Part shown: in pieces, positions 28,737-47,879 of the stretch
How the letters are laid out: every line of letters begins with the position of its first letter
Position numbering within the stretch: position 1 is the first letter of the stretch
Virus record (IMG/VR): IMGVR_UViG_3300006133_000325
DNA: 64,000 nt
Direction: 5' to 3' (one strand)
Source: a virus
Lineage: Duplodnaviria > Caudoviricetes
Program-made: the position numbers and the translations under genes
The notes under the pieces: model-generated
What the model saw: the letters and a program-made list of their open reading frames with translations, nothing else
Databases searched by the model: none
What the model was told of the DNA's origin: nothing

Positions 28737-29051
28737 TTACCCAATTGTAAATCCACAAAAACTCTCTACAAAATCAGGCTCTTCAATTTGCTTATACTGT
28801 TCTTCTTCTTGCTTATATTCAAACCACCATCTTTTATGTGATGGATTATATATCCCTTCATCACATTCTTCGATAAGTGCATATTGATAACAAGTTTCAT
28901 TTATGTCGCAATTATTTTCTATTACAGATGAATAAGCATCTTCAAACTTAGAATACCATCCTACTAACCTGCTCGAGCCAAATTCCGGAAATTTTGACGT
29001 AGCATTGAAGCTTAAATCGGTCATTACCATAATAGTATATATTTTACTCAC
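28737..29051 (-). CDS. Hypothetical protein
   Basis: ORF with GAGGAG RBS. Confidence 0.65.
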   Translation of the reverse strand: MSKIYTIMVMTDLSFNATSKFPEFGSSRLVGWYSKFEDAYSSVIENNCDINETCYQYALIEECDEGIYNPSHKRWWFEYKQEEEQYKQIEEPDFVESFCGFTIG

Positions 29052-30359: not shown

Positions 30360-30650
30360 CTACAAATCAAAAAGTTGAATATTCGGTACTTCAATAGAAT
30401 TATTTTCTTTTTCCTCCTCTACAATTTCTATCCCGTATTTTTCTACCACTCCCTCTGGATATTCTCTCATCCAAAGTTTAGCGCTTAATGTATTACCACA
30501 ATTTTTACAAGCGCAACTTTCACAATCTTCCCATTTACTAAAAATTCCATTTTGACTTCTATACTGTTCCACCAAATCTAAGTTCCATTCAATTTCTGAC
30601 ACGTTCCCACAATTTCCACATATCCATTTTGACTTGTCTGTTAAAATCAC
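30360..30650 (-). CDS. Zinc-ribbon hypothetical protein
   Basis: CGNCG...CKNCG. Confidence 0.6.
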   Translation of the reverse strand: MILTDKSKWICGNCGNVSEIEWNLDLVEQYRSQNGIFSKWEDCESCACKNCGNTLSAKLWMREYPEGVVEKYGIEIVEEEKENNSIEVPNIQLFDL

Positions 30651-31783
30651 TTTTTATCACCATCCGATCTATTTATTTTACTATAGTTCATAAATTTCAT
30701 ATCAAAATATCTATATGCCAGTTCTGGGATCTCTTTTTCAATCTGTTTCAGGTATCTCATTTCCGAACACTCTTTTTGATGTCTTGATTGCTGATACTCC
30801 ACAAATTCTCTATAAGATTTTTTCTTAAAAGCACTGGGCTGATTACACCACGCAGCAAGATTTATATATGTACCCCTATAAGGAGATTCCTCATATCGGT
30901 TAAATCTCATAATATATGGTAAACACTGATATTTCATAAGCAGTTCGATTCGTTTCCATAAATCCCATATATCTTGCCTCCAAAATTTATCATCCCATTT
31001 ATCTTCTCTATCAAAACCGCAAAAAGTATAAAATTTTAAGACTTTATCTGTATACCTTCTCAATAGCTGCAGCTTATTTTCGATCAGTTCGTAATCAGCT
31101 ACATTGTCAAATGCAAATATATAATCACCATCATATTTACTGTTAAAAATCACGTTACATTTTTCGTCTGTAAGAAGCCGTTCATCCATGCCTTGCTTAT
31201 ATTGAAATGGTTTTCTTGTATTTTGCAATTCTCTAAATATTTCTTTCCAATAAGGACTTCCGAGAATATTATCATCCAATAAACATATCTTCTTTCTTGA
31301 AGGATCGAGAAACTTACTTAATGGACTATGATAATCAACTTTTTTATAATTACGATTCACGCAAAATTCACATTGTCTAAAGCAACCTCTCGTCGTGTAG
31401 CCAATCGAATAATCAAGATAATACTTAAAATCATTTCTCTTTTTGCCACTCTCAATTTGTCGATTTACCCATGTATCATATAAATGGTAATCTGGCATAT
31501 AGTGTTCTACTTCGTCAGGAAGCTTTGGAGCTTTGTCATAGAAGAATCCTGTTCCGCCATATTTTACATTAGGAAGTTTCAAAACTTCTTCATCTATTGG
31601 TGTATCAGTAAATACTTTAGAAATGAATACTTTGTCATATGTTTCCAAATCTTCATAATCCATTTTTAATTCAACATCAGTACCAAGTCCTTTGTAGTAA
31701 CCGGATAGTTTCATACAAACCAGATTGGGGAACCTGTGCTTGTCTCTGCCTATTAGATCTGCATCTATAATTGCTATTCTCAA
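30647..31783 (-). CDS. Radical SAM protein (phage family with FPNL..MKLS N-terminus)
   Basis: TTRGCFRQCEFC (CX3CX2C), LLDDN, QGMDER. Confidence 0.8.
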   Translation of the reverse strand: MRIAIIDADLIGRDKHRFPNLVCMKLSGYYKGLGTDVELKMDYEDLETYDKVFISKVFTDTPIDEEVLKLPNVKYGGTGFFYDKAPKLPDEVEHYMPDYHLYDTWVNRQIESGKKRNDFKYYLDYSIGYTTRGCFRQCEFCVNRNYKKVDYHSPLSKFLDPSRKKICLLDDNILGSPYWKEIFRELQNTRKPFQYKQGMDERLLTDEKCNVIFNSKYDGDYIFAFDNVADYELIENKLQLLRRYTDKVLKFYTFCGFDREDKWDDKFWRQDIWDLWKRIELLMKYQCLPYIMRFNRYEESPYRGTYINLAAWCNQPSAFKKKSYREFVEYQQSRHQKECSEMRYLKQIEKEIPELAYRYFDMKFMNYSKINRSDGDKK

Positions 31784-31894
31784 TAATCAGCACCAAAGTG
31801 GTTGCAACCTTTAAAGCTAGCTACTAATTATCCTTTCTTAATCATCTTATTGTTTTAAAAGTTCTTGACATATCATCGGAATGCTATGATATTA

Positions 31895-32446
31895 TTAAAT
31901 AACTGTATACCAATAATCAAATATTTTTCTATAGCTATTTCCGCTCTTAATATCCCCCTTATATTGCCTTACTCGACCATTAGCATACTTTTTATAATAC
32001 TTATATCTATTTGGTTTACGCCTTCCTCTATGTATTCTTTTATAATAAACAGTTCCTACAGGATCATCGAAATTATACTTACCATTTTCACCAACAGGTA
32101 TAGCAAGTGGTGGATAACCACTATATGTTTGCGCCAAAAATTTAACATGTGCTTTATATTTGAAATCTCTTTCTCTTTTACTTCTTCTCTTTTGTTTAGA
32201 ATAATTTTGTGAAATTTCAGATTGTATATATGCATCTTCACATCTGCCAACTCTGAAGGTCTTACCGCCTACTTTATCACACCATAAGAATTTTTCAAAT
32301 TCATCTGCAGCATCTTCTGGCTTTAAATCATGATATATGTCATTTGGCATTCCCTTTTCTGTAGCAGTTATTTCATACCAGCTCATCATCTTCTCAAAAT
32401 CTTCTTTTCCGTAAGGACATTCCCTACAATACATGATATCCACCAC
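31895..32446 (-). CDS. Hypothetical protein with basic C-terminus
   Basis: ORF track. Confidence 0.6.
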   Translation of the reverse strand: MVDIMYCRECPYGKEDFEKMMSWYEITATEKGMPNDIYHDLKPEDAADEFEKFLWCDKVGGKTFRVGRCEDAYIQSEISQNYSKQKRRSKRERDFKYKAHVKFLAQTYSGYPPLAIPVGENGKYNFDDPVGTVYYKRIHRGRRKPNRYKYYKKYANGRVRQYKGDIKSGNSYRKIFDYWYTVI

Positions 32447-32456
32447 CTATCCATTT

Positions 32457-33215
32457 TTATAAAATAATACTATTCCATTTCTTATTCTTCTCGTATTTCC
32501 ATTGAATGCTTCCATAATAAAATCTTGTTTCTATATCTTCTACACGTTCCATAGACAATATCCATTCACGATATTTTACCGCCTCTTCTTTTGTGGCATC
32601 ATAGTATGCCTTCCACATACTGATCGTTTTCTCTATTTGCTCTACAGACCACTCATAATCAGATAAGGAAGCTTGTCTCTTAAATTCTGCTATATACTTA
32701 TCCCTCTCCTCTTTCGCCTCTTTATATGTAAAATAGACTTTATCTGGTCTAATGCTTACCCTATCTACATGATGCTGCCATATCGGATATTTTTTTACGA
32801 TACAAAATCCATCTTTTGTAATATCTTCTTCTATATTCCCATGAAAAATTTGATTCGATTTTACTAATAATCCTGACTCATATGCCTTTTTAATAGAATC
32901 TGGATTATCTATGGAAACATGTAAACTATCGAACAACTTTACATCTTCAGAATTTGGCTTCTGTTCTAAATGGAATAATTTAGTGTTATATGTCCATCCT
33001 TTTGGAAGTTTTCTTCGCTTTTCTTCGTTTTTGAATACATCTATTGGTATTCCATCAACATATCTTGTTTCTTTTGGTTCCAATAGATCAATACAAACCG
33101 CATCGGAAAATTGCTCGTCTACTCGTCCGTATTTTACAAAATATTCACAACCGATTTTCTGACACCAGTAAACGATATCACCATGATTAAATCGCTTTTC
33201 AAAACCTTTTTGAAT
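32457..33215 (-). CDS. Hypothetical protein; apparent ATT start
   Basis: Listed ORF 32457..33083 is open upstream to ATT ATT (33218/33215) right after GGAGGTG. Confidence 0.6.
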   Translation of the reverse strand: MQKGFEKRFNHGDIVYWCQKIGCEYFVKYGRVDEQFSDAVCIDLLEPKETRYVDGIPIDVFKNEEKRRKLPKGWTYNTKLFHLEQKPNSEDVKLFDSLHVSIDNPDSIKKAYESGLLVKSNQIFHGNIEEDITKDGFCIVKKYPIWQHHVDRVSIRPDKVYFTYKEAKEERDKYIAEFKRQASLSDYEWSVEQIEKTISMWKAYYDATKEEAVKYREWILSMERVEDIETRFYYGSIQWKYEKNKKWNSIIL

Positions 33216-33251
33216 AATTTCACCTCCTCTAATGAAAACGATATTTCATAA

Positions 33252-34133
33252 CTAATAGTTTGTAATCAATACTTCTATATCCTGGCTCTTATCCTTCTTT
33301 TGGTAATTGCAATTGTTATAATTACCATTTAAATAATGTACGTGATATCTATCCTTCCATTCTTTCAGCATTGGATTGTCATATTTTAAATTGTTACTTA
33401 GTGCAAACCTCCCGCCCCTAAGATTGATGCCATCCAGTAAATTTAATAAATCTCTCTCATCATTCTTCGTCCAGCCACCGTTTTCATTATAAGAAGCAAC
33501 AGAATTATAATACGGCGGATCACAATACACAAAGTCCCTGTTTTGAAAGACGCAATCTCTAAAATCTTTATTATGAAACTCAATATCCTTCTTATGTAAT
33601 TCTTCTACAAACTCTTTCAGTTTCTTCTGTAATGCTATATTGTAATCTCGTTTTCCGTATGGTATATTGAATTCTCCTTTTGAATTAAAGCGTATCTGAT
33701 TATTAAAAGCACATGCAATCAACGTATAAAACTTTATCCAATTTGGATACTTATTATAGTCTTCCCGTAATTTTAAGTATTTAGTTTTATTATAATTCCC
33801 TAGACCATTACTTGAATTACAACCATAACTTTTATATCCATTTATATCAGATCTGCTTAGCCCATAGCTCGTAATTGTTTCAAGGATTTTCTCATGAATA
33901 TCTTTGTAATCAATTTCATAAAAATGTTTTAATAAATCTACTACTTGGGTACATATATCATTATATATAATATGTTCTGCTTTTACATTTACGCCTACAT
34001 TAAATCCACCGCCAAACAAATCAATAAATGTATTCATATCATCTGGGAAGAGATGTAAAATCTCCCCCAGCAATTTATATTTCCCACCGACATAATTCAA
34101 GCAAGATTTTATGTATTTTTCACTCATTATCAA
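33252..34133 (-). CDS. DNA adenine methyltransferase (Dam/D12 class)
   Basis: LNYVGGKYKL, FIDLFGGG, FNNQIRFNSKGEFN, VYCDPPY, EVLITNY. Confidence 0.93.
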   Translation of the reverse strand: MIMSEKYIKSCLNYVGGKYKLLGEILHLFPDDMNTFIDLFGGGFNVGVNVKAEHIIYNDICTQVVDLLKHFYEIDYKDIHEKILETITSYGLSRSDINGYKSYGCNSSNGLGNYNKTKYLKLREDYNKYPNWIKFYTLIACAFNNQIRFNSKGEFNIPYGKRDYNIALQKKLKEFVEELHKKDIEFHNKDFRDCVFQNRDFVYCDPPYYNSVASYNENGGWTKNDERDLLNLLDGINLRGGRFALSNNLKYDNPMLKEWKDRYHVHYLNGNYNNCNYQKKDKSQDIEVLITNY

Positions 34134-34214
34134 CTAGGAGTAAACGCGCATTTAAATGGTATACCAAACCTCATTTTCCTCCTTGTTTATTTTATAAATC
34201 GTTTTATTATTCCA

Positions 34215-35084
34215 TCAATAATTAGTTAGGCAATCTCTCAACATTTCATCTTTTGCTCTTTGATAAAACGTGAGGTCAATCTCAAATCCGTATGCACTTC
34301 TTCCCAATTCAACCGCTGCCCTCAAAGTCGTTCCAGACCCACAGCAGGGATCTATGACAACATCTCCCTCATCTGTAAATATCTCAATCAACTTTTTAAG
34401 GACTGATACGGGTTTTTGTGCAGGATGAATTTTAGGTATTTCTTTTCCATCTCGCTCCCAATTAAACCAATTAAAAACCATATGACCTGTACCTGGAATA
34501 TTTTTACCATTTTCATCAATTTGCAATCCATTTCTAAACTTAGGCAATCTGTCTCGATATAAAAGCAGTGCATATTCCGTTGCTCCTACAACACGCATAT
34601 TTGCCTTTAGGACTTGAGGGCTGTAATTTTTGATGAATACTAAAGGTATGTAGTGGATAAAGCCATGTTTTGTCGCCGCGCTAATGAGCGTCTGTATCTG
34701 CTCAAAGCTGCAAAACACAATCATACAGGGAGAATTGCTACTCCTGCCTCGTGGAACTGGTTTTGTATCGTCTTTCTTTAACATTTTGTGACAGAAATTA
34801 AACATTTCATAAAGATTAAAATTGAAATCCGAATTAAAAGCCGCTTTTTTTGCATATTTACTTTCACCATTTTTGTTATTTCCCTTTTCGTACCACATAG
34901 GATTACTACCATAAAAATTTGTTCCAATGTTATAAGGACAATCGCAAATTACCAACTGCGCTCTCGGTATGTTATAGCCTTTAAAATTCTGAAAACTATC
35001 TCTGTAAATCTCGAATTTAATTTTCTTTTTATATTCCATTTTTATTAGGAGTAAATCATGATTTATCCCGCGCGGAAACCTCAT
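34215..35084 (-). CDS. DNA methyltransferase (N6/N4 beta class)
   Basis: DCPY (variant motif IV), HPAQKP, VIDPCCGSGTT. Confidence 0.9.
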   Translation of the reverse strand: MRFPRGINHDLLLIKMEYKKKIKFEIYRDSFQNFKGYNIPRAQLVICDCPYNIGTNFYGSNPMWYEKGNNKNGESKYAKKAAFNSDFNFNLYEMFNFCHKMLKKDDTKPVPRGRSSNSPCMIVFCSFEQIQTLISAATKHGFIHYIPLVFIKNYSPQVLKANMRVVGATEYALLLYRDRLPKFRNGLQIDENGKNIPGTGHMVFNWFNWERDGKEIPKIHPAQKPVSVLKKLIEIFTDEGDVVIDPCCGSGTTLRAAVELGRSAYGFEIDLTFYQRAKDEMLRDCLTNY

Positions 35085-35131
35085 TTCCTCCTTGATTTTC
35101 TATTATTTCTATCTCATTTATTCCCTTGTAA

Positions 35132-35390
35132 TTACTCAATTTTTACATTGATAAACCCAAGAACTTCCTTCATTCCAAGACCACCATCTTCCCATGGTTT
35201 CATACAATATTCCCATAATTTCGGATGTGTTTGCTTTAGCCGTTGAAATCTGTTTGGTTCTTTCTCTAAATGACACCCATATCCGCAAAAGGAGTATCCT
35301 GTCCTACTACAAGCAGTTGTATAATACTTTCCAGACTTCAAGCCTGCATTGTTTTTAGATCTTCATTTGTATATGCTCTTTGCTCTGAAT
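35132..35390 (-). pseudogene. PAPS-reductase-like gene remnant (N- and C-termini joined by deletion)
   Basis: EDLKTMQA*SLE followed by YYTTACSRTGYSFCGYGCHLEKEPNRFQRLKQTHPKLWEYCM. Confidence 0.7.
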
Positions 35391-35585
35391 TATAATCAGA
35401 AGGAGATAAAATGTCAGAATCATTATACCCCCTCTGGTTATTTTGCGTTTATTATCCATTACCTTATTGACATACGGCGTGTAAACACTTAATAACCGAT
35501 TACTTTATGTACTTCTCCTTTTTCTTTTTTTGTATTTTCAGATTGTACTTTTCTGATTTATGGTACGTCTGCCGTCTTGCTCAAA

Positions 35586-36354
35586 CTACTTCTTTATTTC
35601 TTTTTCTTTACTACAATACTCATCACTTTTTAAGTGCTGTATAACTCGATTTTTACCAGCTTCAAAATATTTTTCATCTTTTTCAATACAAATCACCTTT
35701 CTGTTTAAGTTACTTCCTGCAATTGCACATGTCATACTTCCTGCAACAGAATCTAATACAACATCTCCTTCATCTGTATATGTTTTTATAAAATACTCAT
35801 AAATTTCTACTGGCTTTTGAGTTGGATGAATCTTTTTTGATTGATCTGCATTACTAAAAATCTGCACATCCAATGGGTATCTATCTGTACTGTCATATAA
35901 GGTATTTCGTATTTCTCTGCCATAACAGCTATTCCCATCTGCCTCTTTGACATATTTTGTTTTTGCAAATTTTCTTTTATGTCCATGTGTCATCTGTGGA
36001 TGATAAATTGGTGGTCTTTTATAAAACACTTCTATATTTTCATGCGCCCGCATTGGCATTTTTTTAGCGTTTAGATGTCCTTTGGGGTGTGTTTTCTGCC
36101 ATATCCATTCATACTTAAACATCTTAGGATTACTCATTACCAAAGCAGACGTAAATGGTTGACTACTAAATAGTAAAATCGCCCCATTGTCCTTAATAAT
36201 TCTATTGTATTGTTTCCACAAAGGTTCAAACGGAATAATAATATCCCATCTACATTGAGTGGTACTAACCATACGGAAGATCGGAAATAATGCAATCTAT
36301 GGATTTATCTGGAATATAACTCATAACATTCAGACAATCTCCGCGAATCAGCAT
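35586..36354 (-). pseudogene. DNA methyltransferase (beta class), frameshifted
   Basis: GDCL...SDLPYG, then a 4-nt excess (TAGT, 36264-36267) before TTQCRWD; HPTQKP, LDSVAGS. Confidence 0.85.
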
Positions 36355-36469
36355 ATTATCACGAAAATCCGTATTGCTCGGCACCTCCTCTTCATTAAAT
36401 ATTTTATATATATCTGTCAAAGCAAAATCCTTTCTTTATTTACAGGTTAAGTTTTTCTTATGTTGTAAT

Positions 36470-36593
36470 ATTCTATCATATCCCTTTTTAAATATTTTTT
36501 CTCTTTCTTAATACAAATACCTTTTTTCCTGATTTCTTAATGGCTATTGATGAGATCTAAACAATCACCACAAAATAATTCAATACCTTTCAT
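36470..36593 (-). pseudogene. Collapsed methyltransferase remnant
   Basis: MKGIELFCGDCLDLI joined to a C-terminal-like IAIKKSGKR...DRILQH. Confidence 0.5.
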
Positions 36594-36606
36594 TTAATAT
36601 CTTCTC

Positions 36607-37335
36607 CTATACAAGCCCTAATCTTCTTTCTGCTACATCAAAATATTTTTTATCAATTTCATATCCTAAGAAGTTTCTTCCTAGCTCTGAAGCTGCTACC
36701 AATGCAGAACCCGTACCGCAGAATGGATCGAAAACTACTTCTCCTTCTTTGCTGGAATTTAATATATAGAATTTTAATAGATCTACTGGTTTTTCACATG
36801 GATGTGTCTTGTTTCCTATAATATTAGAAAATTGATGAACAGTTTTACTTTTTCCTATGTTATTGATATATTTTGCTTTTCCTTTTCTTAAAAACAAAAT
36901 ATATTCACAATTCTTCATATAATATTGGGAACAGACACAATTATTCTTCTCCCATACCAATAGATTATGTAGTTTAAAACCTACTTTTTGCGATTCGTTT
37001 AACATATCTGTCAAATTCAAGACATTCGTAAAAATATAGGCATGGCTCCCATTCTTTAGAACTCTATATACATCCGACATCCAATCTGATATTTTTACAT
37101 TTTGGTAGGAAAATAACCTTCTGTTGCCACTCAACATCCCCTTCGGACGTTCCGAATTCCTACCATTATGATTTCCTCCTGTAATAATTCTATATGGAGG
37201 ATCTGTAATCAGTAGGTCTACACTTTCTGATTCCATGTTTCTCATTGCTACAATAGAATCATCATTTATGATTTTATTACATTCCATTCTTTCTTTAGGG
37301 GTAAAATATACTTTATTGGAATTCCAAATCCCCAC
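36607..37335 (-). CDS. DNA methyltransferase (N6/N4 beta class)
   Basis: LITDPPY, HPCEKP, VFDPFCGTGS. Confidence 0.93.
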   Translation of the reverse strand: MGIWNSNKVYFTPKERMECNKIINDDSIVAMRNMESESVDLLITDPPYRIITGGNHNGRNSERPKGMLSGNRRLFSYQNVKISDWMSDVYRVLKNGSHAYIFTNVLNLTDMLNESQKVGFKLHNLLVWEKNNCVCSQYYMKNCEYILFLRKGKAKYINNIGKSKTVHQFSNIIGNKTHPCEKPVDLLKFYILNSSKEGEVVFDPFCGTGSALVAASELGRNFLGYEIDKKYFDVAERRLGLV

Positions 37336-37344
37336 TCCCTCTAT

Positions 37345-37770
37345 TTATTTATCGCTACTACTAAACTCATCTAAATCGGTATTGATTTTTGTTTGATCAA
37401 TATCCCTTAAAAGTATTTCATAATCAGTATCACATAATCCCAAATAATCTTGTAAACACCAAGGAGTATTTTTTGGAGTTAGCTCTATCCATTTGTTAAT
37501 CTTTTCAATCCATTCTTCCTCTTTGTAATCTTCTAATACATGCGTCTCATATTTCGCTTGTAGCCAAGCCAATTCTGCAGCAATCGCCTTCTCATATGTT
37601 ATATAGTGTCTTGGTAAGTCAGGAGAGGTATAATAATACCCTAATCCAGAAGAGCGATATACCCGTTCTTTTGCAATCCTACTAATATTTCTTTGATTTA
37701 ACTTTTCTATATTTGTAATAATATCCCAGCTTTCTATATTTGGAATCACCTTGCATAGTAGGAAAACCAT
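37345..37770 (-). CDS. Hypothetical protein
   Basis: ORF track; start uncertain. Confidence 0.5.
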   Translation of the reverse strand: MVFLLCKVIPNIESWDIITNIEKLNQRNISRIAKERVYRSSGLGYYYTSPDLPRHYITYEKAIAAELAWLQAKYETHVLEDYKEEEWIEKINKWIELTPKNTPWCLQDYLGLCDTDYEILLRDIDQTKINTDLDEFSSSDK

Positions 37771-37785
37771 GCAAGGCTATGTTTA

Positions 37786-37893
37786 TTATTCCTTGTTTTT
37801 ACGATGCCTCCCAGCTATATAACCTCCAATAAAGGATGCAATCAAACAAACACTAAGATACAATAAAAAACTCCCAATTTGTAACATAATCAT
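37786..37893 (-). CDS. Small single-pass membrane protein (35 aa)
   Basis: MIMLQIGSFLLYLSVCLIASFIGGYIAGRHRKNKE; ATGA overlap with the PspA-like gene. Confidence 0.6.
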   Translation of the reverse strand: MIMLQIGSFLLYLSVCLIASFIGGYIAGRHRKNKE

Positions 37894-38636
37894 ATCTTTC
37901 CACTCTTTCTCTTTGCCTTCATCTTTGATAGTTTCCGCTCAATCTCTTCTTCCTTCATACGTTTGTCTAATCTTTGTTGCTGAACATCCGAAGAATTCTC
38001 ATAAGCCACTTTATGACCATCTGCCTCCTCTTTTGTCTTGCGAACACCATCACGAACTTTTTCTAGCATTTTATCTTCTTCCTTGTTAGAAATCCCAGGT
38101 GTGGCTTGTAATGATTTCGTAACCTGTGCTGTTTCTAATGTAAGTACCGCACTTTCTTTCTCAGATTTTAAATCAGCCAATTCATTAAAAAGCTGATCTA
38201 CTGTTTCTTTTTGTAAAGAGGAATTTTCTCTTAATTCTTTTAATGCACTTTTGATAATATCGATTTTTTCCTCTATTTCCTGTTGGCGTTTTAAATATAC
38301 CTTGGCTCCCTCATCATCTTCTTTTTCCATACAAGAATCAAGATTGATGCCTAATTGCATATTGCCTTTCTGTAAACTTCTTAACTGTTCTTCGTAGTTT
38401 TGAATCTTGCCAAGCATTTGTGTATAAACCGAATATGCCTGCCTATAATCTTCTTCCTTTTTAGTAATTGCAGTATTGTAATAAGCCTTTGCCCCTTCTG
38501 GAGTAGATGCATCTTTTGTTATTATCTCATCAGCAGTTCCAACCATCCTAAGGCGTAATCTTTTCCCGATTCTTGTGACGAATAAAAAGACAATTACCAT
38601 AATCAATAATAGTATCATTGCTACAATTTTAGCCAT
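37890..38636 (-). CDS. PspA/IM30-like coiled-coil protein with N-terminal TM helix
   Basis: TM segment followed by long heptad repeats, DDEGAKVYL and C-terminal IERKLSKMKAK typical of the PspA family. Confidence 0.7.
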   Translation of the reverse strand: MAKIVAMILLLIMVIVFLFVTRIGKRLRLRMVGTADEIITKDASTPEGAKAYYNTAITKKEEDYRQAYSVYTQMLGKIQNYEEQLRSLQKGNMQLGINLDSCMEKEDDEGAKVYLKRQQEIEEKIDIIKSALKELRENSSLQKETVDQLFNELADLKSEKESAVLTLETAQVTKSLQATPGISNKEEDKMLEKVRDGVRKTKEEADGHKVAYENSSDVQQQRLDKRMKEEEIERKLSKMKAKRKSGKI

Positions 38637-38638
38637 AC

Positions 38639-39277
38639 TTAATCTCTCCCCTCATCAATCGACAAACCAAAATTCTGAAATAATTCTGTCATTCCATTTC
38701 TGTACCCAGAGCCAAGTGCCTGGAATTTAAACCCATTGTTATAGCGATATAATCTACCCATTTCTACAGCATTTAGATTTTCAAAATTTTCATTTTCTGA
38801 TAAATCATATTTATAACACTCTCCGGATGGATTATCATAATCACAGATTGTCATAGTTGCATTGCTTACCATGCCAAAATTTTGCAAACGCTGTACTGCC
38901 CTAAAAATAGTTAAACATACTGTAAAATCAGTTCTGTTTGTCGGAAACTTATCGGCATGAATGATAAAATACTCATCAAAGTGTTCCCTGTTAAAAGTAA
39001 TCCCTTGTGAATCATCTCCTGTTCGATTATCTCCCGAATACTCGATCCACGGATATGAGCTGCCATCACCATATGTATTGTAATTTACAATATCATTTGG
39101 ATATGCTACTTTTCTATCAGAGTTTGTCAAGAAGCCATGAATATCAAAATCTATATCTGCTTCTCCTGCATATCTGTTGGCATCCCAATTCACCCCAATA
39201 AATACATTTGCAATAGCGCTTCCATCTTCTTTTGTCATATTGATTTTTTGGTTCTTACTCATGTTAATTACTTCCAT
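38639..39277 (-). CDS. terD: TerD-family stress protein
   Basis: INMSKNQKINMTK, GVNWD, DFDIHGF, YSGDNRTGD, NFGMV, GRLYRYNNGFKFQALGSG. Confidence 0.88.
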   Translation of the reverse strand: MEVINMSKNQKINMTKEDGSAIANVFIGVNWDANRYAGEADIDFDIHGFLTNSDRKVAYPNDIVNYNTYGDGSSYPWIEYSGDNRTGDDSQGITFNREHFDEYFIIHADKFPTNRTDFTVCLTIFRAVQRLQNFGMVSNATMTICDYDNPSGECYKYDLSENENFENLNAVEMGRLYRYNNGFKFQALGSGYRNGMTELFQNFGLSIDEGRD

Positions 39278-39294
39278 AATTCCATTCCTCCATT

Positions 39295-40083
39295 TTATTT
39301 ATTGTTGAGCCAATCCTTATATTGGCGCAAAATTTCAGTATATAACTCCTCATCACTCATACCATCCATATCGCAAACGGCAGTAAATCCTGTATTGTCA
39401 TTTTTTCTTCCTTTCATATCATCCAAAGAACGTAAATAAGAAAAATTGTCATTTCCGATACCAATAAACTGCACAAACATATTGTAATTGGAAAGTTCCT
39501 TAATGATTTCATTTGTTTCCGTCTTATCCCAATTATCTCCATCTGTAATAAAAATGATAAATGCCGGAATGCAACTTGGTTCTACGTCTTTATAGTACTT
39601 CACGATGTCTTTTAAAACTGGCGCATAATTTGTCCCGCCCATATTCATACGGGATTTCATCATAACCTCCCTTACATAATTCTTATAGTTTTGAATTGTC
39701 ACAGCTTCCACTCGTTTTTGACTATCTGAAAACAGCCAAGATTCTAATTCGCCGTTATCATCAAATCGTAAAGAGATTGGAAGCAGCCTGGTAATAGTAT
39801 TCTGCACAGATCCATCTGCAAACAGCCCGGACATACTACCGGAATAGTCCATTGCTAATGCCACTCTTGCAACATGTTTTGACATATCAATTTTTCCTGT
39901 TTTAGACATATCAATCAATACTTTATCTAAGTTTTTTGCCGACTTAGACATATCAATCGTCCCTACCATTTTTTCAGTTGATTCCTTTTGCGGTATTTCT
40001 CTACTTTGTGCTGGAGTACCGGAAATATCCGGATACTCCTCTTTGTTCTTGCTAAAAAGATTCTTAAATAGTCCCATACTCAA
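39295..40083 (-). CDS. vWA domain protein (TerF-associated vWA type)
   Basis: MIDAS DYSGSM, GGTNYAPVL, FITDG, FVQFIGIG, DNTGF. Confidence 0.88.
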   Translation of the reverse strand: MSMGLFKNLFSKNKEEYPDISGTPAQSREIPQKESTEKMVGTIDMSKSAKNLDKVLIDMSKTGKIDMSKHVARVALAMDYSGSMSGLFADGSVQNTITRLLPISLRFDDNGELESWLFSDSQKRVEAVTIQNYKNYVREVMMKSRMNMGGTNYAPVLKDIVKYYKDVEPSCIPAFIIFITDGDNWDKTETNEIIKELSNYNMFVQFIGIGNDNFSYLRSLDDMKGRKNDNTGFTAVCDMDGMSDEELYTEILRQYKDWLNNK

Positions 40084-42712
40084 ACTCCTTTTCTTTTATA
40101 TTATTTCTTTTTACAATCGCTTTTCTAATCAAATCTACTGGAATTACCAAAAGAGAAAGACCTATAACGATAAGCCATTGAATCAGGTTCAATGAAGTAA
40201 GTTTCAATAATTCTCCTAAAAACGTACAAGCAATCATAACTCCAACAAAGATTCCAATTGCTATCTCAACAAATAATTTATTTTTTTTCAAACCATGAAA
40301 TAGATTAAAATGTTCTGTCCGAATATTAAATCCATTAAATACAGCCATGAAGCAAAGTATCGTAAATCTAGCAGTCAAAAATTCCAAATCACTCGTAAAA
40401 TATCCGTGTAGAGATGTAAACATCATAAGGAAATACACCCCGATAAAAGTACATGCGGCAATTGCGATTCTTCCCTTTGCTCCTCTGATAAATAAGCCAG
40501 AGCCTTTTTTAATAGGAACCTCACATATATATTCTTTTTTAGAAGGTTCTCCGCCAAAGGAAAGAGAGTTTAAAGAATCCATAATAATATTTACGATCAA
40601 TATTTGAACAGATGCTAAAACAGACATACCAGAAGCAAAAATTGGATACAAAATACCTAAAATCAATAATGAAATATTGATAGGAAGTTGGAACTCTAAA
40701 AACATCATAATGTTGTGCATAAATGTCCTGCCAAGTTCTACTGCCTTTACAGTGGAAGCAAAATTATCATCTGTTAAAACAATATCACTTGCTTCTTTTG
40801 CAACATCGCTTCCGCTTTGCATACCAAAACCAACATCTGCTCTCTTTAAGGCAGGTGAATCATTTACTCCATCCCCTGTCATCGCAACCGATTTATCAAT
40901 TTCCTGTGCCAATGTCACCAAACGCAATTTTGTATTTGGAGAACATCTTGAGATAACGCGAAGAGAAGGAAGAACCTCTTTTACTTCTTCATCCGTCATT
41001 GCTTCAAATTCGTCATTTGTCAATGCAACCTCTCCATCTTTATAAATACCACATTCCTTTGCCACAGCTACGGCAGTTTCAATACAATCTCCTGTAATTT
41101 CGATTACTTGTATCCCTGCTTTTTGTGCTGTCTTTACTGCTTTTGGCACCTCTTCTCTTATCGGATCTACCACTCCTATAACCCCTAAAAGCGTCATTTC
41201 ATGTGGCAGATGATTTTCTATCAATGCTTCATTTTTAACTGCCAGGGCAATACACCTCATAGATTTCGAGGTCATTGTTTTAATTGTATCACTTAGATTG
41301 CTTTTCATTTCTTTTGTGAATTCAAATACCGTTCCATTCTCCTGCATGTGTTGCGAACAAAAATCAATAATTCTCTCTGGTGCGCCTTTATAATATGTAA
41401 TGCCATTTTCTGCGGTAAAGGCAGAGTATTTATTTAAGCTACTAAATACTTGCTTGTCCTTCATTTTGTTGTTTTTTACAATTTCTGAGTAATTCGACGG
41501 ATTTACAAGGCTTAATACTGCTCGGTCAATAGAATTACCTCCTATTATGCTTCCTTCTCTGTCAAAGGTTGCACTATTATTTAGTACTATATTTTTCTGA
41601 ACAGTATCCCAAAGAGTAGAATTTTTTAACAACTCTTTTCCACTTCCATCTATCACTGTTTTAGGAGACATCATTCCTGTTGTTAAAGTTCCAGTTTTAT
41701 CTGTACAAATGATATCAACATAGGCTAATTCTGGAATCTTATTTGGATTTTTGGCAAGAATATTGAATCTTTCCATAGTTTTTACATTTTGCTTTGTAAC
41801 CAATTTCACAATCAAAGGAAGCCCTTCCGGAACTGCTGCTACGATAATGGTTAATGCCACAGAAAAGTTTTGTGCAAATTTTTGTGCCAAGCTAAATACA
41901 TTATCTGAAAAATAATTCTCAAATCCTACCTTTAAAATTCCCGAAGTCACCAATACGATAAATGTTAAAATAGCAGCCGCGGTTCCCCATTTTGATATAA
42001 AATCGCCTAAATTATCAAGTGCAATATTTAATGCTGTTTTAGGTGATTCCAGCGTTTGCATTTTTACCATTGTATCACCATTAATCGTATTCACTCCAAC
42101 ATCTGTTACTACCATCTTCCCTTCGCCTGACATTACTGTTGTACCAGCAAAGAGACAATTTTCATTTGTATAAGCATCGGTTGATGTCGTTTTCTTATGA
42201 ATATATTCATCTACTGGCTTTTTCTTACACTCTTTTGTTTCTCCATTGATAGCAGCATTATTAACCGAAATTTTTCCTTCTACTATATACCCATCTGCAA
42301 AAATTTCATTTCCTAATCCAAGGCATACAATATCTCCTACTACAATATCATCTTTATTGATGGTTTCTAATTTCCCATCTCTAATCACATCGCAATACCT
42401 TACAGATGTTTTTTCTCTTAACTCAACTGCAGATTTTTGTACTCCAATCCCTGTTTTTACGGCAATTCCTGTCACGATTCCAAGCACAACCATAATCATA
42501 GCTGGCTCTGAAAATTCCATTACTCCAACAAAAGTTAGTCCAAATTGTAAAACAGCGATAGAAATAAGGATCATTGTAATTTTTTCACTTAATGCTTCCT
42601 TTGCAAACTCATACCATTTTTTTAATTTTGGCTCTGGTAGTTTATTGCTGCCGTATTTCTTTCTGCTTTTTATAACCTCATTTTGAGTTAAACCTTTCAT
42701 TTTTTCCTCCAT
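40064..42712 (-). CDS. P-type cation (Ca2+-like, P2) transporting ATPase
   Basis: PEGL, DKTGTLT, KGAPE, DPIR, ITGD, MTGDGVNDSPALK; about 10 TM segments. Confidence 0.95.
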   Translation of the reverse strand: MEEKMKGLTQNEVIKSRKKYGSNKLPEPKLKKWYEFAKEALSEKITMILISIAVLQFGLTFVGVMEFSEPAMIMVVLGIVTGIAVKTGIGVQKSAVELREKTSVRYCDVIRDGKLETINKDDIVVGDIVCLGLGNEIFADGYIVEGKISVNNAAINGETKECKKKPVDEYIHKKTTSTDAYTNENCLFAGTTVMSGEGKMVVTDVGVNTINGDTMVKMQTLESPKTALNIALDNLGDFISKWGTAAAILTFIVLVTSGILKVGFENYFSDNVFSLAQKFAQNFSVALTIIVAAVPEGLPLIVKLVTKQNVKTMERFNILAKNPNKIPELAYVDIICTDKTGTLTTGMMSPKTVIDGSGKELLKNSTLWDTVQKNIVLNNSATFDREGSIIGGNSIDRAVLSLVNPSNYSEIVKNNKMKDKQVFSSLNKYSAFTAENGITYYKGAPERIIDFCSQHMQENGTVFEFTKEMKSNLSDTIKTMTSKSMRCIALAVKNEALIENHLPHEMTLLGVIGVVDPIREEVPKAVKTAQKAGIQVIEITGDCIETAVAVAKECGIYKDGEVALTNDEFEAMTDEEVKEVLPSLRVISRCSPNTKLRLVTLAQEIDKSVAMTGDGVNDSPALKRADVGFGMQSGSDVAKEASDIVLTDDNFASTVKAVELGRTFMHNIMMFLEFQLPINISLLILGILYPIFASGMSVLASVQILIVNIIMDSLNSLSFGGEPSKKEYICEVPIKKGSGLFIRGAKGRIAIAACTFIGVYFLMMFTSLHGYFTSDLEFLTARFTILCFMAVFNGFNIRTEHFNLFHGLKKNKLFVEIAIGIFVGVMIACTFLGELLKLTSLNLIQWLIVIGLSLLVIPVDLIRKAIVKRNNIKEKEFEYGTI

Positions 42713-42870
42713 TTCTTTTTATTTTTTGCTTTCTATATAATCTATCACACAATCCCTGATAGTAGAAAACAAAACAATTAAACCAATTCCAATAACAATC
42801 CAAGCAGTTTCTTACATTTTATTACTCCTTCCTAGCATCCAAACATATTGTTCATCATCTTGTAAATTCA

Positions 42871-43767
42871 TCACTTCCTTAACCTAATTTTCTCAAACAT
42901 ATCATCAACTGATTCAAGTAAATCAAATCTCTCATCTAAAGGAGATGTTGAACTTTTAGAAAACTCCTTTTCTACCATATCAATAAAATAGGTAAATTCC
43001 GAATCCTCTCCCATATAAAACTCATCCCATTCTTCACTACTCATCAGCCGTCGGACTTCAAGCTGTTCTAAGGCTAAATTATCAAAGCTTACTACTTTGA
43101 AATGTTCGATGATGGCACCAATGTTTTCTTTCAGCCACATTTGTTTAGCAATAATATTTTCACACTCCGCCCTATACCATTCATTTCCACGTCTTAACTG
43201 TTTATATCCAAGGATAAGTATTTTTAAACCTTTATCAGACAATATCTTTACGTCAGATGGTTTAAATATACCGTTTATTACATGAATAACTGCATTTGGA
43301 TACTGTTTGACCAATGATATAAATTCATCTGTTGGATCTACAAGTGATACCCCAAGACCATATATCAATTTTTCTTCAGCTAATTTTTTAATCAGTTCCT
43401 GCTTCTGTTCAAAATGTTTTTGATTGACTGTAACATTTGCAATAACCCTTTTATCTTTTAGCTTATGTAAGAACGGAATCAGATCGGGATGGCTTGTTAC
43501 GTCACCCCCTCCAAGTGCAACCTCCTGATACGGATGTAAAGTTTCAATAAAATTTTGGTTTAGGATATCTCCATGTTTACCATTTTTTGTACTTCCCTCA
43601 TGACAAAAAGCACAAGACATGTCGCAATAATTGCTTATTTTAATATCATTATTCTCTGCAAAATCAGGAATGAATTCATCCTCTTGCGTTTCTCTAATTT
43701 TAGTTCCGTCTAAAATATTAAATTTAACTGTGTAATTCCCATTTTTATAAATCTTCCAACTGTTCAC
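42871..43767 (-). CDS. Radical SAM protein
   Basis: NYCDMSCAFCHE (CX3CX2C), EVALGGG, NVTVNQ, ILILGYK, VVSFDNLA. Confidence 0.85.
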   Translation of the reverse strand: MNSWKIYKNGNYTVKFNILDGTKIRETQEDEFIPDFAENNDIKISNYCDMSCAFCHEGSTKNGKHGDILNQNFIETLHPYQEVALGGGDVTSHPDLIPFLHKLKDKRVIANVTVNQKHFEQKQELIKKLAEEKLIYGLGVSLVDPTDEFISLVKQYPNAVIHVINGIFKPSDVKILSDKGLKILILGYKQLRRGNEWYRAECENIIAKQMWLKENIGAIIEHFKVVSFDNLALEQLEVRRLMSSEEWDEFYMGEDSEFTYFIDMVEKEFSKSSTSPLDERFDLLESVDDMFEKIRLRK

Positions 43768-43782
43768 CTGTAAACCTCCATA

Positions 43783-44088
43783 CTATATACTCCCACTCAA
43801 ACCCCATTCTTGATTAACTATCATATCCATAACATTCTCATCATCGTTCCAGCCAAAATCCCCATCTGGAGGATATTTACTAGACTTTTCAAATGCTATT
43901 GCTTCTTCTTTCGTATAAAAATGTTTGATTAGTGGTTTATTATTTTCTGGATAATGCCATCCTGAACCAGAAAGCAATAATGCTTCCCCTTTATCTCACT
44001 TATCATAATCAGACTCTATACACATAACTAAGAAATGTAAGCTACTACTATTAATCTCAAAAATTTCACGTCTTACTTGCTTTTTCAT
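43783..44088 (-). pseudogene. Third NSSS-motif paralogue, interrupted by an in-frame TGA
   Basis: MKKQVRREIFEINSSSLHFL...YDK*DKGE continues in frame into listed ORF 43783..43977. Confidence 0.7.
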
Positions 44089-44101
44089 AAAATTTTCTCT
44101 C

Positions 44102-44552
44102 CTAATCACAATCTGTCTTTAATGACACATATTTATTGAATACAAAGTTAATAATTGCATCCTCATCATAAATATCTATGATGTTGATTTCACTATAAGG
44201 CTGCGACTGATGATCAATATCCGGATCTTGTTCTCCTAAAATTTTGATTCCCGTTGCCCCAGAATATTTACATACCGTCTCCTGAATTCTTTTAAACTCC
44301 CACATATCATAAATATTAGAAATATCATCATATTCAGATAAATAATACAGACAAGTAATTAAATAAGAAAGCTTGTCATACTGGGAAGTATAAAAGCATA
44401 AGTCTTTACCGAACTGTCCAAAATCAATTTCTATTTCTCCATCTTTATTCAGTTTAAACTTGCTCGCTTCCCTTCCGTCATTAGAAATAACCAAGCTGTG
44501 GGCGGAAGACGAGTTTGTTTCAAATACATCTTCTCTAATTTTTCTTCTCATT
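44102..44552 (-). CDS. Conserved phage protein with FETNSSS motif
   Basis: MRRKIREDVFETNSSSAHSL...IDHQS; start taken at MRRK. Confidence 0.75.
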
Positions 44553-45269
44553 CTATTCCCAATCCTCTTCTGGATATTCATGGTCAATTGTCTCCATATT
44601 TACTAATCCTGTTCGCTTCATATCTTTCCAATAACAGTACTCATCACCATCCTGAATTACTATATATTTCTTATTGATAAGATATTCTTCAAGAGAGATA
44701 TTCTCCTTTTTTAAAAAATTACTCAAAATATCTTCATCTACACATCCTGTATATGGCTCTTCATAATGCCACCATCCACTTGCTTCCCAATATCCGACTG
44801 CAATCTCCCAATCATTTCCTTTTTGTAATAAATATTCTTTTAATTCTTCTTCAGTCTTTCCATGTATTTGATAATAATCGTTATTTTCATGTATTTTAGA
44901 ATCTTTATTCGCAATTATACGATTACCCATCGGAAGTTTAATCTTCTTAAGACCTGGTATGTATTTCAGCGCGAGTGAAACAAGTTCTTTATAAACCTCA
45001 TCATTGTATTCATGAACCAAAGATGCACAAGCATACAGCCATTTATCTGCAAATGTTCCTATAGCCCTAAATGGGCTTCTCCCAAACTCCATATCATGAA
45101 TCCATGGTTTCCAAACACAAGACACCTCTCCTGTATCTGCATCCCTTTCTAGGTATATTCCATTTAGAATTTCTTCTTTAGTATATTTATCTTCTCGTTT
45201 CATAACCGTAAAAGAGTGCATACTACTTGAGTTTGTTTCAAATACACCTCTTCTAATTTGTGTTTTCAT
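44553..45269 (-). CDS. Conserved phage protein with FETNSSS motif
   Basis: MKTQIRRGVFETNSSSMHSF. Confidence 0.75.
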   Translation of the reverse strand: MKTQIRRGVFETNSSSMHSFTVMKREDKYTKEEILNGIYLERDADTGEVSCVWKPWIHDMEFGRSPFRAIGTFADKWLYACASLVHEYNDEVYKELVSLALKYIPGLKKIKLPMGNRIIANKDSKIHENNDYYQIHGKTEEELKEYLLQKGNDWEIAVGYWEASGWWHYEEPYTGCVDEDILSNFLKKENISLEEYLINKKYIVIQDGDEYCYWKDMKRTGLVNMETIDHEYPEEDWE

Positions 45270-47463
45270 ATTTTCCCCTTTCCTTATAAAAAAGCCTTCT
45301 TAACGTACAAATATCTCTTGGCATGCTACTCAAATCTTCTATATCATGTAAATTTCTAACCCAAGCATAAAATTCATTTGCTATTGGTGTGGTTAATCCA
45401 GAAGTTTTATAAATGTATCCGTTTTTAATTGTCTCATGAGCTACGCTTCTCATAAATTTCCAGAAATGATAATATGTCAGCTTTAGCTTGACCATATATC
45501 CAGAACTGTCTTCAATTACAAAACCTTCAATCTTGTTATTGTTGTATTCGTAGTCTTCCTGTAAAACATCATAATACCAATCAAAAAAATCTTGCCAATT
45601 TGCAATCTCAAACGCTTTTTCTTTGTGTTCTAATCCAAACTGCTCTGCAATATGGCACATCTCACCATATTCATATTTAGCAAACTTCATTTGATTGTAA
45701 ACAATATCTAATAATACCAACTTGTTTTCAGAATATTCGATAATATGCGGATCGTTCTTCCTATCAACACATTCAAACACGAATGATACATTATGTTCTT
45801 TTATATAATTCTTCATTTTCAGTATATTTTCTTCTGATACTTTCTCATACAACATATCTTTAAGCCAGCCAGCAAATTCACTGTCAATTGTAGACTTACT
45901 TGCAATAAATAAATCATCTTCATATTCGTTATAGCTGATAATTCCCAGAAAACCATTCTCTTTCACATATGCTGTTACAGGAAATTGTAGTTTATGCTGC
46001 AACATATCAAATTTCGTTTCAGAACGTTCATTGACATTAAAAAATTTTGTATATGCTCTTGCTACTACTTTTCCTTTCATTGTGTCAAGATATAGTCCTC
46101 TTGCTTTCGTAGTCTGTTCGTCCCATATTTTATTGTAAAATACTTTAGGGGTAAAATTAAAAGATGAAATATTACCGAACTTCTTTTCTTGAATATACTT
46201 ATTAGAACGCAATGCAATAATGACATCTGCTATCGTACTGCCTGTTACAGTTTGCTCTTTTTTGATTTCTGGTGTTTTAAATACCTCATTCTTTACTTCT
46301 ATTGTATGAATCCCATTTTTATCAATCTGAACACACCTGAGATAACCTCCAAATTCTACTTGTCCTTCTAAATTGAATACCTTGTCATTTACTTGAATTG
46401 GCAATTGTTTCGTATTTCTATGTCCATGAACCTGGTAATAATTTTCTGGCGTAGTATTCAAATACGTCTCTGCCATTTTCTCAAAATCATTGTAATTGCC
46501 TACTCCATGAATCATTTGATCGGTTGCTACAAATGATAAATTGTTAGGAACTGTACTGAGTCCAGCATGAGTAACCAAGAAAACTTTATCTTCATATTTA
46601 TAATAAGCACACTGTCCAAATCTTCTATATAACTGTCTGATATCTTTTTTATCAATTCCAGCCTCAATAAGTGCTGGTTTTGTTACTAACTCAAATTCTT
46701 TTGATTGGCTGAGACAATCATTAGCGTATAACCATAACCATTTTTCATGGTTCCCTTCTAACATCAATACATTTCTCTTATCTTTAATCGAAATAAGAAA
46801 CTTTACAACTTCGGCATTTTCAATTCCTCGATCAATATAATCACCTGTAAAAATGAAAAACTCATTATCTTTCATTCCACCATTATCTGATAGATATTTC
46901 TGCAACACAGTATTGCAGCCATGGATATCTCCAATATGATGAATTTTTTCATACTCTGACAAATCAATCATTTTCATCCAAATAGTATCTAATTCATCTG
47001 GTTTGATAATCTTTACTCCAGATGGAATCTTTTGCGTAGCAAATCTGGAATACATTTTATCTATCACTTCTTCAGGTACTCTCTTTAATGGTACTCTGTT
47101 TGCATTTCTCCTTTTTACTTCTTCAATTGGAATATCTGTAAAATCAACACAATAAATCCGATATCTATAGGTATCACACATTTGTTTATATCTGTTGATT
47201 TCTGATGTCTTGGAATTAGTTGCATCTACTACTGTAAATTCTCCTTTTTTCATCCTTGTTTCTAACAAGTTGAATAAAACCTTCCATGCAATGCCATCAT
47301 TACTTTGACTGATTTCTTCCCTACCATCCAGCCGCATAATAGGACTCTGGCATAATAATCTGATATCATCTACTGATAATGTATAGGATTTTAACCCATT
47401 CTTTTCAATCCATGTGGATTTACCACATCCGGCAGAACCTCTTAATAAAAGTAAAATTCTCAT
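45253..47463 (-). CDS. RNA repair fusion: polynucleotide kinase + metallophosphatase + Rnl1-type RNA ligase
   Basis: GSAGCGKST/VVDATN; GDIHG, GDYIDRG, GNHE, HAG, HGH; ARGL, KFFN, KENGFLG (motif I), FE, EGFV, KLK. Confidence 0.9.
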   Translation of the reverse strand: MRILLLLRGSAGCGKSTWIEKNGLKSYTLSVDDIRLLCQSPIMRLDGREEISQSNDGIAWKVLFNLLETRMKKGEFTVVDATNSKTSEINRYKQMCDTYRYRIYCVDFTDIPIEEVKRRNANRVPLKRVPEEVIDKMYSRFATQKIPSGVKIIKPDELDTIWMKMIDLSEYEKIHHIGDIHGCNTVLQKYLSDNGGMKDNEFFIFTGDYIDRGIENAEVVKFLISIKDKRNVLMLEGNHEKWLWLYANDCLSQSKEFELVTKPALIEAGIDKKDIRQLYRRFGQCAYYKYEDKVFLVTHAGLSTVPNNLSFVATDQMIHGVGNYNDFEKMAETYLNTTPENYYQVHGHRNTKQLPIQVNDKVFNLEGQVEFGGYLRCVQIDKNGIHTIEVKNEVFKTPEIKKEQTVTGSTIADVIIALRSNKYIQEKKFGNISSFNFTPKVFYNKIWDEQTTKARGLYLDTMKGKVVARAYTKFFNVNERSETKFDMLQHKLQFPVTAYVKENGFLGIISYNEYEDDLFIASKSTIDSEFAGWLKDMLYEKVSEENILKMKNYIKEHNVSFVFECVDRKNDPHIIEYSENKLVLLDIVYNQMKFAKYEYGEMCHIAEQFGLEHKEKAFEIANWQDFFDWYYDVLQEDYEYNNNKIEGFVIEDSSGYMVKLKLTYYHFWKFMRSVAHETIKNGYIYKTSGLTTPIANEFYAWVRNLHDIEDLSSMPRDICTLRRLFYKERGKYENTN

Positions 47464-47879
47464 TCTTCACTTACCGTCGTAAGTTGCACGTGCTTTTCAC
47501 CTATAGGAACTTTTCATTTTATCCTTTCTTTATTTCTATTTTTAATATGCTTTCATTTCAAACCATTGCTCACCACAATAATTCTCTTTTTTAATAGCAT
47601 CTATAATCTAGACCGTAATATATGTACATAATCGCTATTTTGTTCTCTTTAATTACTATCTATTTCATGTCTATTTTTAATTATTGTTCTCATTTTATTT
47701 CTCCATATATAATTTCCATAAAACTGTAAGATTGACTAATAAAATTATTGACTTACTGTAGAATTCGTTATATTCTATATGTGTCCCAGGTGCAGAATAC
47801 CAGACTTAGATCCTCATAACGAGTAGTGAGAAAAACCTATGGGACATTATGCTCACTATTTCAAACGGAGGTGTTGCCT

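Follow-up and report, generated by a model that had tools for sequence, protein, structure and literature searches.

Phage leaders with two self-complementary segments ahead of DNA-modification genes: a candidate RNA element that hides the Shine-Dalgarno sequence and pairs between mRNA copies

In phage Mu, the ribosome binding site of mom, a DNA-modification gene that is harmful if mis-expressed, is locked in a hairpin (the translation inhibition structure) that is opened by the protein Com and contains no covarying palindromes. C-boxes (e.g., those of Esp1396I), which lie at the promoter upstream of restriction-modification (R-M) genes, are two adjacent palindromic boxes with a conserved DNA consensus and one helix-turn-helix (HTH) protein. 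We know of no RNA homodimer that governs how an mRNA of a bacterium or phage is translated. Few functional RNA homodimers occur naturally (PMC7357161); palindromic kissing-loop dimerisation sites include the HIV-1 dimerisation initiation site (DIS; GUGCAC/GCGCGC), the oskar 3' untranslated region (UTR) and the attenuation stem-loop of pea enation mosaic virus 2 (PEMV2), an umbravirus in which dimerisation switches gene expression (PMC7357161; PMC10484742). In the guanidine-II (mini-ykkC) riboswitch, a small leader governing access to the Shine-Dalgarno (SD) sequence, two loops kiss via the self-complementary CG of ACGR, and the RNA also homodimerises in crystals (PMC5558903; PMC7544219). Here we analyse four leaders, each with a pair of palindromes, in a 64,000-nucleotide (nt) stretch of DNA from a virus of the Caudoviricetes (IMG/VR record IMGVR_UViG_3300006133_000325; the whole stretch is called the window below). 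They precede genes for a radical SAM domain protein, a Dam-like DNA methyltransferase (MTase), an N4/N6 DNA MTase and an RNA ligase, and are best explained as instances of one modular mRNA element that regulates in cis and sits in the short gap before DNA-modification genes and other genes sensitive to dose.

All four palindrome pairs described on the minus strand in the initial annotation of the window were found again. In the Dam leader (34125..34184, (-), ATG 34127-34125), the SD AAGGAGG (34184-34178) is followed by GAGGTTT, by the palindromes GGTATACC (34165-34158) and AAATGCGCGTTT (34153-34142), which are separated by the spacer ATTT, and by the anti-SD ACTCCT (34141-34136); AAATGCGCGTTT contains one U.G (T.G) per half. 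The N4/N6 MTase leader (35037..35093, (-), ATG 35039-35037) consists of the SD AGGAGG (35092-35087), then GAGGTTT, the palindromes CCGCGCGG (35075-35068) and TAAATCATGATTTA (35065-35052) around the spacer GA, and the anti-SD ACTCCT (35052-35047). Both are of the type that we call B and have the frame AAGGAGGAAA(A)TGAGGTTT...TTTACTCCTA in common, whose ends had been proposed to pair; AGGAG:CUCCU is indeed paired in the predicted folds of the Dam and N4/N6 MTase leaders (-13.1 and -14.1 kcal/mol). In the radical SAM leader (31781..31840, (-), TTG start 31783-31781), the SD-like AAAGGA (31836-31831) precedes AGCTAGCT (31822-31815), the spacer TTAAA and GGTTGCAACC (31809-31800), and a conserved ACTTTGGT lies between the second palindrome and the TTG. 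The RNA ligase leader (47461..47530, (-), ATG 47463-47461) has the SD-like AAAGGA (47527-47522), a closing stem AAGTT/AACTT, the palindromes CCTATAGG (47507-47500) and GCACGTGC (47493-47486) with the spacer TGAAAA, and a hairpin CTTACGACGGTAAG (47483-47470); its first palindrome overlaps a UCCU that is able to pair with the SD. In each of the four, the start codon lacks an SD of its own, and a strong one stands 45-60 nt further upstream; nearly all other genes of the window have an AGGAGG-like sequence 6-10 nt ahead of the start.

Unbiased sampling with the flanks alone (GAGGTTT...TTTACTCC, then GGAGTNAGAGGTTT...TTTACTCC) through IMG/VR, metagenomes and 48 bacterial genomes yielded 92 distinct leaders, among which the first palindrome takes about 19 forms and the second about 21. 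Two palindromes were present in all matches with a preceding SD and in none of the chance matches without one, and the two best palindromes comprised 10.6 Watson-Crick mirror pairs, vs. 4.3 ± 2.3 with shuffled interiors and 3.8 in the SD-less chance matches. The layout of the family is SD, GAGGUU, palindrome 1, A-rich spacer, AAA-N6-UUU (palindrome 2), ACUCC (anti-SD), 6-12 nt and AUG. The two MTase leaders of the window belong to a large, apparently undescribed leader family of Lachnospiraceae/Clostridia phages and prophages.

Homologues of the N4/N6 MTase (77-86% identity) carry homologous leaders at 80 IMG/VR loci. Among type B relatives, the first palindrome is CTGCGCAG, GTGCGCAC, GTCCGGAC, CCCGGG or GCTGGCCAGC and the second is AAATCATGATTT, AAAGACGTCTTT or AAAGATATCTTT, a common combination being GCUGGCCAGC / AAAGAGCUCUUU; the homologue in Ruminococcus phage phiRM10 has CCGGCCGG + GGTATACC between SD and start codon. 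Type A, which is commoner than type B among these homologues, reads AAAGGAAUAGGUUGU-NNNN-ACAUAAAACC-NN-GGUUUCCUUUU, and in 65 otherwise near-identical copies its core NNNN was GCGC (38), CGCG (21), CCGG (5) or CACG (1). Relatives of the Dam leader have GGTCGACC + AAACGTGCGTTT (locus L083) or GGTATACC + TAAATGCGCATTTA, the latter perfect (genome G001). Those of the radical SAM leader have GTCATGAC + AAGTGCACTT, AAGTGCGCTT or AAGTATACTT and, in the frame type of the window (AAGGAAAGGATAA...CACTTNGGT), CCATGG, CTCATGAG or TTCATGAG + GCTGCGCAGC. Relatives of the ligase leader (L097, L098, L488-L490) keep CCTATAGG and replace GCACGTGC with GTGCGCAC, which amounts to two compensatory double changes. 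The question raised in the initial annotation, whether homologous leaders keep their palindromicity while the sequence varies, is thus answered positively, by way of compensatory double changes. The closest INPHARED phage records have only genes in common with the window, at 63-72% DNA identity, and none of the differences listed for contigs of four mouse-gut runs falls inside the palindromes.

Mirror pairs were counted in alignments that had been anchored by the flanks alone. Covariation in the second palindrome was 0.580, compared to 0.117 ± 0.023 in shuffled alignments (0/500) and at most 0.095 when the partners were slid; the corresponding values for the first palindrome were 0.696, 0.171 ± 0.033 and at most 0.24. 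Every mirror pair covaried. Adjacent bases form the innermost pair of palindrome 2, which was AU in 10 cases, GC in 9, CG in 7, UA in 3 and UG in 3, and was never unpaired. Self-complementarity is therefore maintained through compensatory changes, as in DIS-like sites. Because adjacent bases are unable to pair within one strand, the constraint must be either pairing between molecules or the two-fold symmetry of duplex DNA. The covariation of the central neighbouring bases bears out the earlier argument that such loop-less palindromes fold poorly in cis, and does not fit a simple hairpin (a terminator, stabiliser or processing stem), in which covariation would be confined to the stem and the loop would be free to vary.

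In predicted folds of 69 leaders, GGAG:CUCC was paired in 98.6%. The only good SD of the element, 45-55 nt before a start codon without one, has in types A, B and C a matching anti-SD with which it pairs, the complementarity expected of an SD-sequestering hairpin, and the anti-SD shifts with the SD between types (GGAGUA:UACUCC, GGAGCA:UGCUCC, GGAGCC:GGCUUC and AAAGGAAA:UUUCCUUU). The 25-30 nt that are enclosed contain two separate self-complementary segments of 8-14 nt each. The fold predicted for type A places palindrome 1 in an apical loop of 12 nt, with purines (AUAA) after it; in the fold predicted for type B, parts of the first palindrome are weakly paired, and the A-rich spacer is conserved in kind. 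The predicted gain from homodimer formation was -17.6 ± 2.8 kcal/mol vs. -6.9 with shuffled interiors (Wilcoxon p = 5 × 10−13), the four leaders of the window ranged from -9.8 to -15.1, and isolated single-palindrome duplexes were predicted at -10 to -21; these energies are those of nested pairing, the kind that RNAcofold models.

Imperfect copies of the palindromes bear on the choice between RNA and DNA. On the sense strand, 14 distinct changes produced G.U (T.G) and 3 produced A.C (one-sided binomial p ~0.006, calculated by hand), and this asymmetry upholds the earlier argument from G.U pairs for RNA over DNA. An example in the window is AAAUGCGCGUUU, for which the relative G001 has the perfect AAAUGCGCAUUU; other imperfect G.U copies are AAACGUGCGUUU, AAGUGCGCUU, AAAUCAUGGUUU, AAAGCUGGCUUU, AAAACUGGUUUU, UCUGGA, GCUGGCCGGC, variants of type A, GGUAUACU and UUCAUGAG. 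CCGG changed to CUGG (CTGG) four times and to CCAG never, and the G.U variants recur over several contigs (22 copies), whereas the A.C variants are singletons.

The main rival is a role of the palindromes at the DNA level, as symmetric duplex-DNA targets of dimeric enzymes or proteins (host or phage R-M enzymes, or a binder that responds to methylation); how far the leader DNA is methylated might then feed back on expression of the modification gene, or the phage might display sites matched to host systems. Such a role would account for the classical 4-6 bp type II palindromes found in all cores (GGCC, CCGG, GCGC, GAGCTC, GACGTC, GAATTC, GATATC), for the DNA-modification enzymes that make up at least 30 of the 43 gene clusters downstream of the family, and for a core switching among near-identical phages that resembles an arms race with strain-specific R-M systems. 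A duplex-DNA site, however, should give no asymmetry between sense-strand G.T and A.C. The palindromes moreover exceed enzyme sites in length (8-14 nt), always lie in sense orientation between SD and start codon inside a covarying RNA hairpin, and number about 40 different sequences that no single protein family except R-M enzymes could read. The hexamers of the leaders are also not avoided elsewhere in the window (TCATGA occurs 31 times, TTGCAA 48 times and TTTAAA 84 times). The window is poor in palindromes as a whole: it contains 249 perfect palindromes of at least 8 nt vs. 339 ± 18 in Markov shuffles, and several 6-bp palindromes are absent (TTCGAA, GGTACC, GAGCTC, GTGCAC, GGCGCC and others). 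Palindrome depletion is the usual sign of restriction avoidance, and it makes the palindromes retained in the leaders more conspicuous. Taken together, the G.U asymmetry, the placement inside an RNA hairpin, the length and the non-avoided hexamers favour RNA over DNA, as far as sequence comparison can tell, and a DNA operator or methylation-sensing site, the alternative named in the initial annotation, is weakened and in our view rather unlikely.

The core is also independent of the enzyme that follows. MTase proteins behind type A leaders were 96.2% identical within core groups and 95.6% identical between them, with no diagnostic column, and one leader, GGTCGACC + AAAGAATTCTTT (GAATTC), heads four unrelated MTase genes (L124, L165, L170 and L178, of the families Methyltransf_11/25, N6_Mtase, N4/N6-like and C5). 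We therefore rejected the palindrome as the downstream MTase's own target or autoregulatory site. An identical leader before four unrelated genes indicates that the leader marks an exchange site of modification-gene cassettes. The palindromes also have no consensus beyond their arms, unlike the copies of a C-protein operator (C-box).

At the RNA level, pairing between two RNA copies appears to be the simplest reading of the covariation. Since the central bases are unable to pair within one strand, we infer that a segment finds its partner in the corresponding segment of another copy of the same mRNA. We give roughly even chances to the resulting view of the leaders, namely an RNA element in which the SD is hidden and both self-complementary segments engage further copies of the mRNA. 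The pairing of segments between copies would yield a dimer or a chain. In the monomer, the hairpin would keep translation off, and the invariant AAA/UUU(A) arms of palindrome 2, which overlap the top of the SD stem and the UUU/AAA inner stem, would pair with the UUU before palindrome 1 and with the UAA at the top of the SD stem. Intermolecular pairing would set in when the transcript is abundant, in lytic growth; pairing of the arms in trans could then remodel the hairpin, loosen the SD stem and change access to the SD, or alternatively the dimer duplex could be a substrate for RNase III. Leaky transcripts in the lysogen would stay silent, and translation would depend steeply on transcript abundance, which would suit enzymes that need to be silent in the lysogen; translational coupling from the upstream gene may contribute.

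Two features of the earlier proposal have to be modified. It had held that all palindromes differ, so that each mRNA would have two orthogonal addresses. This is true of the four leaders in the window. In each of two relatives, however, two leaders have the same first palindrome (CTGCGCAG in G001, GTGCGCAC in G008), which rules out strict orthogonality inside one genome; second palindromes differ within each genome seen. What stands of the self-pairing proposal is the maintained self-complementarity, the tolerance of G.U and the SD/anti-SD stem. Secondly, upstream open reading frames (ORFs) had been noted in two leaders. These are not conserved: UAA, UGA or GUG replaces the AUG of the window in most relatives, the ligase leaders of L097, L098 and L488-L490 are without it, and the frame set by the upstream AUG of L004 is not that of the downstream gene. 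The upstream ORFs are incidental, and an in-frame N-terminal extension of the N4/N6 MTase (ATG 35084-35082) was dropped as a candidate because that ATG is not conserved in relatives.

Because any palindrome is a potential restriction site in a palindrome-poor genome, the fast turnover of the palindrome sequences may reflect escape from host restriction while the segments stay palindromic; phages whose flanks are identical have rapidly replaced their cores, which fits this. More tentatively, and with less confidence than we place in the RNA element itself, these widespread phage leaders may use two evolvable addresses to pair sister transcripts, gating harmful DNA-modification genes by abundance under restriction-driven diversification, and would then constitute the first natural example, among bacteria and their viruses, of a switch in which homodimerisation reads out mRNA concentration.

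Several results weigh against pairing between mRNA copies. Within the window, the radical SAM and ligase leaders show no clear SD/anti-SD stem in their predicted folds, and they have few relatives; a scan for ligase-type leaders gave nothing beyond three contigs already found. Simultaneous pairing of both palindromes needs a pseudoknotted or chain-like complex, and the best nested dimer is an extended duplex in which the SD is still paired, now between strands, so that energy alone predicts no activation. The G.U excess comprises 17 changes that are not strictly phylogenetically independent, and no RNA run is among the public runs listed with the window sequence. The tight linkage to DNA MTase genes, together with the resemblance of all cores to type II sites, would be more directly explained by a methylation role at the DNA level. 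Finally, the leader starts at most 30 nt past the upstream stop codon in 62 of 99 cases, where simple translational coupling could open the hairpin without a dimer.

The last point leads to a further rival, in which ribosomes from the upstream gene open the SD hairpin, the flanks provide short homology for cassette swapping, and the palindromes are a by-product (e.g., of template-switch repair) or serve stability or RNase processing in cis only. The position of most leaders close behind a stop codon, which makes them intercistronic elements rather than 5' ends, speaks for this reading, as do the identical leaders before unrelated genes and the same frame at the head of each of the two tandem MTase genes in the window. 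Such a hairpin, however, needs no self-complementary central four bases, yet these covary without exception; a template switch inside the hairpin has no means of copying the loop; and two independent palindromes per leader have been maintained over dozens of sequence replacements. We regard this explanation as improbable.

Chance, by which adjacent short palindromes are expected in an AT-rich 64-kb window and four happen to precede genes, can practically be dismissed: palindrome pairs with a gap of at most 8 are indeed not enriched in the window (11 vs. 15.3 ± 4.9 expected), and three further pairs lie inside coding sequence without the leader frame (28971-28990, 62198-62223, and AAATCATGATTT at 29703), but it is refuted by hundreds of other phages, whose homologous leaders have two palindromes of different sequence in the same places. 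The window by itself cannot show that the leader palindromes are non-random; related sequences can. Scans for promoters and terminators near the leaders gave nothing above chance. The longest palindrome of the window is a separate feature, a perfect 30-bp palindrome at 63261-63290 (ACAATAAATATTGTT|AACAATATTTATTGT), which is followed by two AAATATTT repeats.

The hosts of the family are Lachnospiraceae and other Clostridia. Prophage copies were found in Roseburia, Anaerotignum, Robinsoniella, Anaerosporobacter, Eubacterium segne, Velocimicrobium and many metagenome-assembled genomes, and the phage of the window was found in mouse-gut metagenomes of about 10 studies. Of 245 leaders, 216 head one of the 43 gene clusters. 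The largest clusters, with about 140 leaders, encode PAPS-reductase-like proteins (phrog_424), most of the remaining ones encode C5, D12, N4/N6, N6, MT-A70 or SNF2-fused DNA MTases, and a few encode sigma-70 factors, HTH or Xis-like proteins, or a double zinc ribbon protein. The phrog_424 protein (L378 and about 140 other loci) has about 400 amino acids and, in its commonest form, no Pfam match; it is probably a DNA-modification enzyme.

Behind the first leader of the window, the radical SAM domain gene (30647..31783, (-), 378 amino acids) matches phrog_9298 ('radical SAM domain protein', E = 1.9 × 10−45), and its product has no Pfam match. The Dam-like gene (33252..34127, (-), 291 amino acids) encodes a D12-class N6-adenine DNA MTase (PF02086, E = 1.7 × 10−32). 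The N4/N6 DNA MTase gene (34215..35039, (-), 274 amino acids from the ATG at 35039; PF01555, E = 2.2 × 10−25) begins at the ATG at which more than 530 IMG/VR relatives equivalently begin. Near its 3' end, 89 bases (34321-34411) are swapped for 1079 others in contigs of three mouse-gut runs, which from the sequences is a cassette-like difference among close relatives. The fourth gene (45253..47463, (-), 736 amino acids) encodes a kinase (AAA_33)-metallophosphatase-Rnl1-type RNA ligase (PF13671, PF00149, PF09511), judging by its domains likely an RNA repair enzyme.

Two other loci of the window are interrupted. A third DNA MTase gene (36420-35586, (-), motif ...CIISDLPYG) has an ordinary leader (AAAGGA, 7 nt, TTG) and is broken by a TAG directly after DLPYG (~36272), and its protein resumes in a different frame (STTQCRWDIIIPFEPLW...); a frameshift, a pseudogene and a sequencing error are all conceivable. 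At 21194-17049 (-), two ORFs with similar starting peptides (LDLELFL..., LDLNLGN...) flank another ORF, whose upstream frame reads GEVFYVGKGKDNRYK, a GIY-YIG-like motif. The arrangement resembles a single gene interrupted by an intron or by the insertion of a homing endonuclease; an Rfam search of the window gave no group I intron.

No Rfam family reached the gathering score in the whole window, with only noise at E up to 10 around the MTase leaders, and full-text searches of the literature gave no description of this leader. If self-pairing is real, it would represent a simple new regulatory principle, in which expression follows the squared transcript level; the leaders would supply synthetic biology with orthogonal parts that are ready for use, and the principle would explain how temperate gut phages silence promiscuous DNA-modifying enzymes in the lysogen. 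Even if the palindromes act at the DNA level, a leader with about 40 interchangeable restriction-type palindromes before MTase genes is undescribed and would bear on the arms race between gut phages and restriction. In metagenomes, the element can also serve in practice to flag cassettes of anti-restriction genes.

Compared to the systems described at the outset, the phage leaders resemble Mu com-mom in the occluded ribosome binding site of a modification gene, and Mu differs in having a protein opener and no palindromes. Unlike C-boxes, the leaders lack a fixed consensus: about 40 unrelated palindromes lie downstream of the SD and tolerate G.U on the sense strand. They resemble the guanidine-II riboswitch as small leaders concerned with SD access in which self-complementary segments may kiss; the guanidine-II loops, however, are conserved, bind a ligand and pair in cis, whereas the palindromes of the phage leaders are mutually different and freely variable. 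As in DIS-type sites, the sequence of a short GC-rich palindrome varies by lineage while self-complementarity is kept; DIS-type sites present it in a loop with purines after it, an arrangement predicted for the first palindrome of type A. DIS-type sites consist of one palindrome in the genomes or 3'UTRs of eukaryotic viruses and mRNAs, and their dimers have been shown experimentally; the phage leaders, described here from sequence, are 5' leaders of DNA-phage mRNAs with two palindromes in an SD/anti-SD hairpin. Both the combination of these features and the scale on which the element occurs appear to be new.

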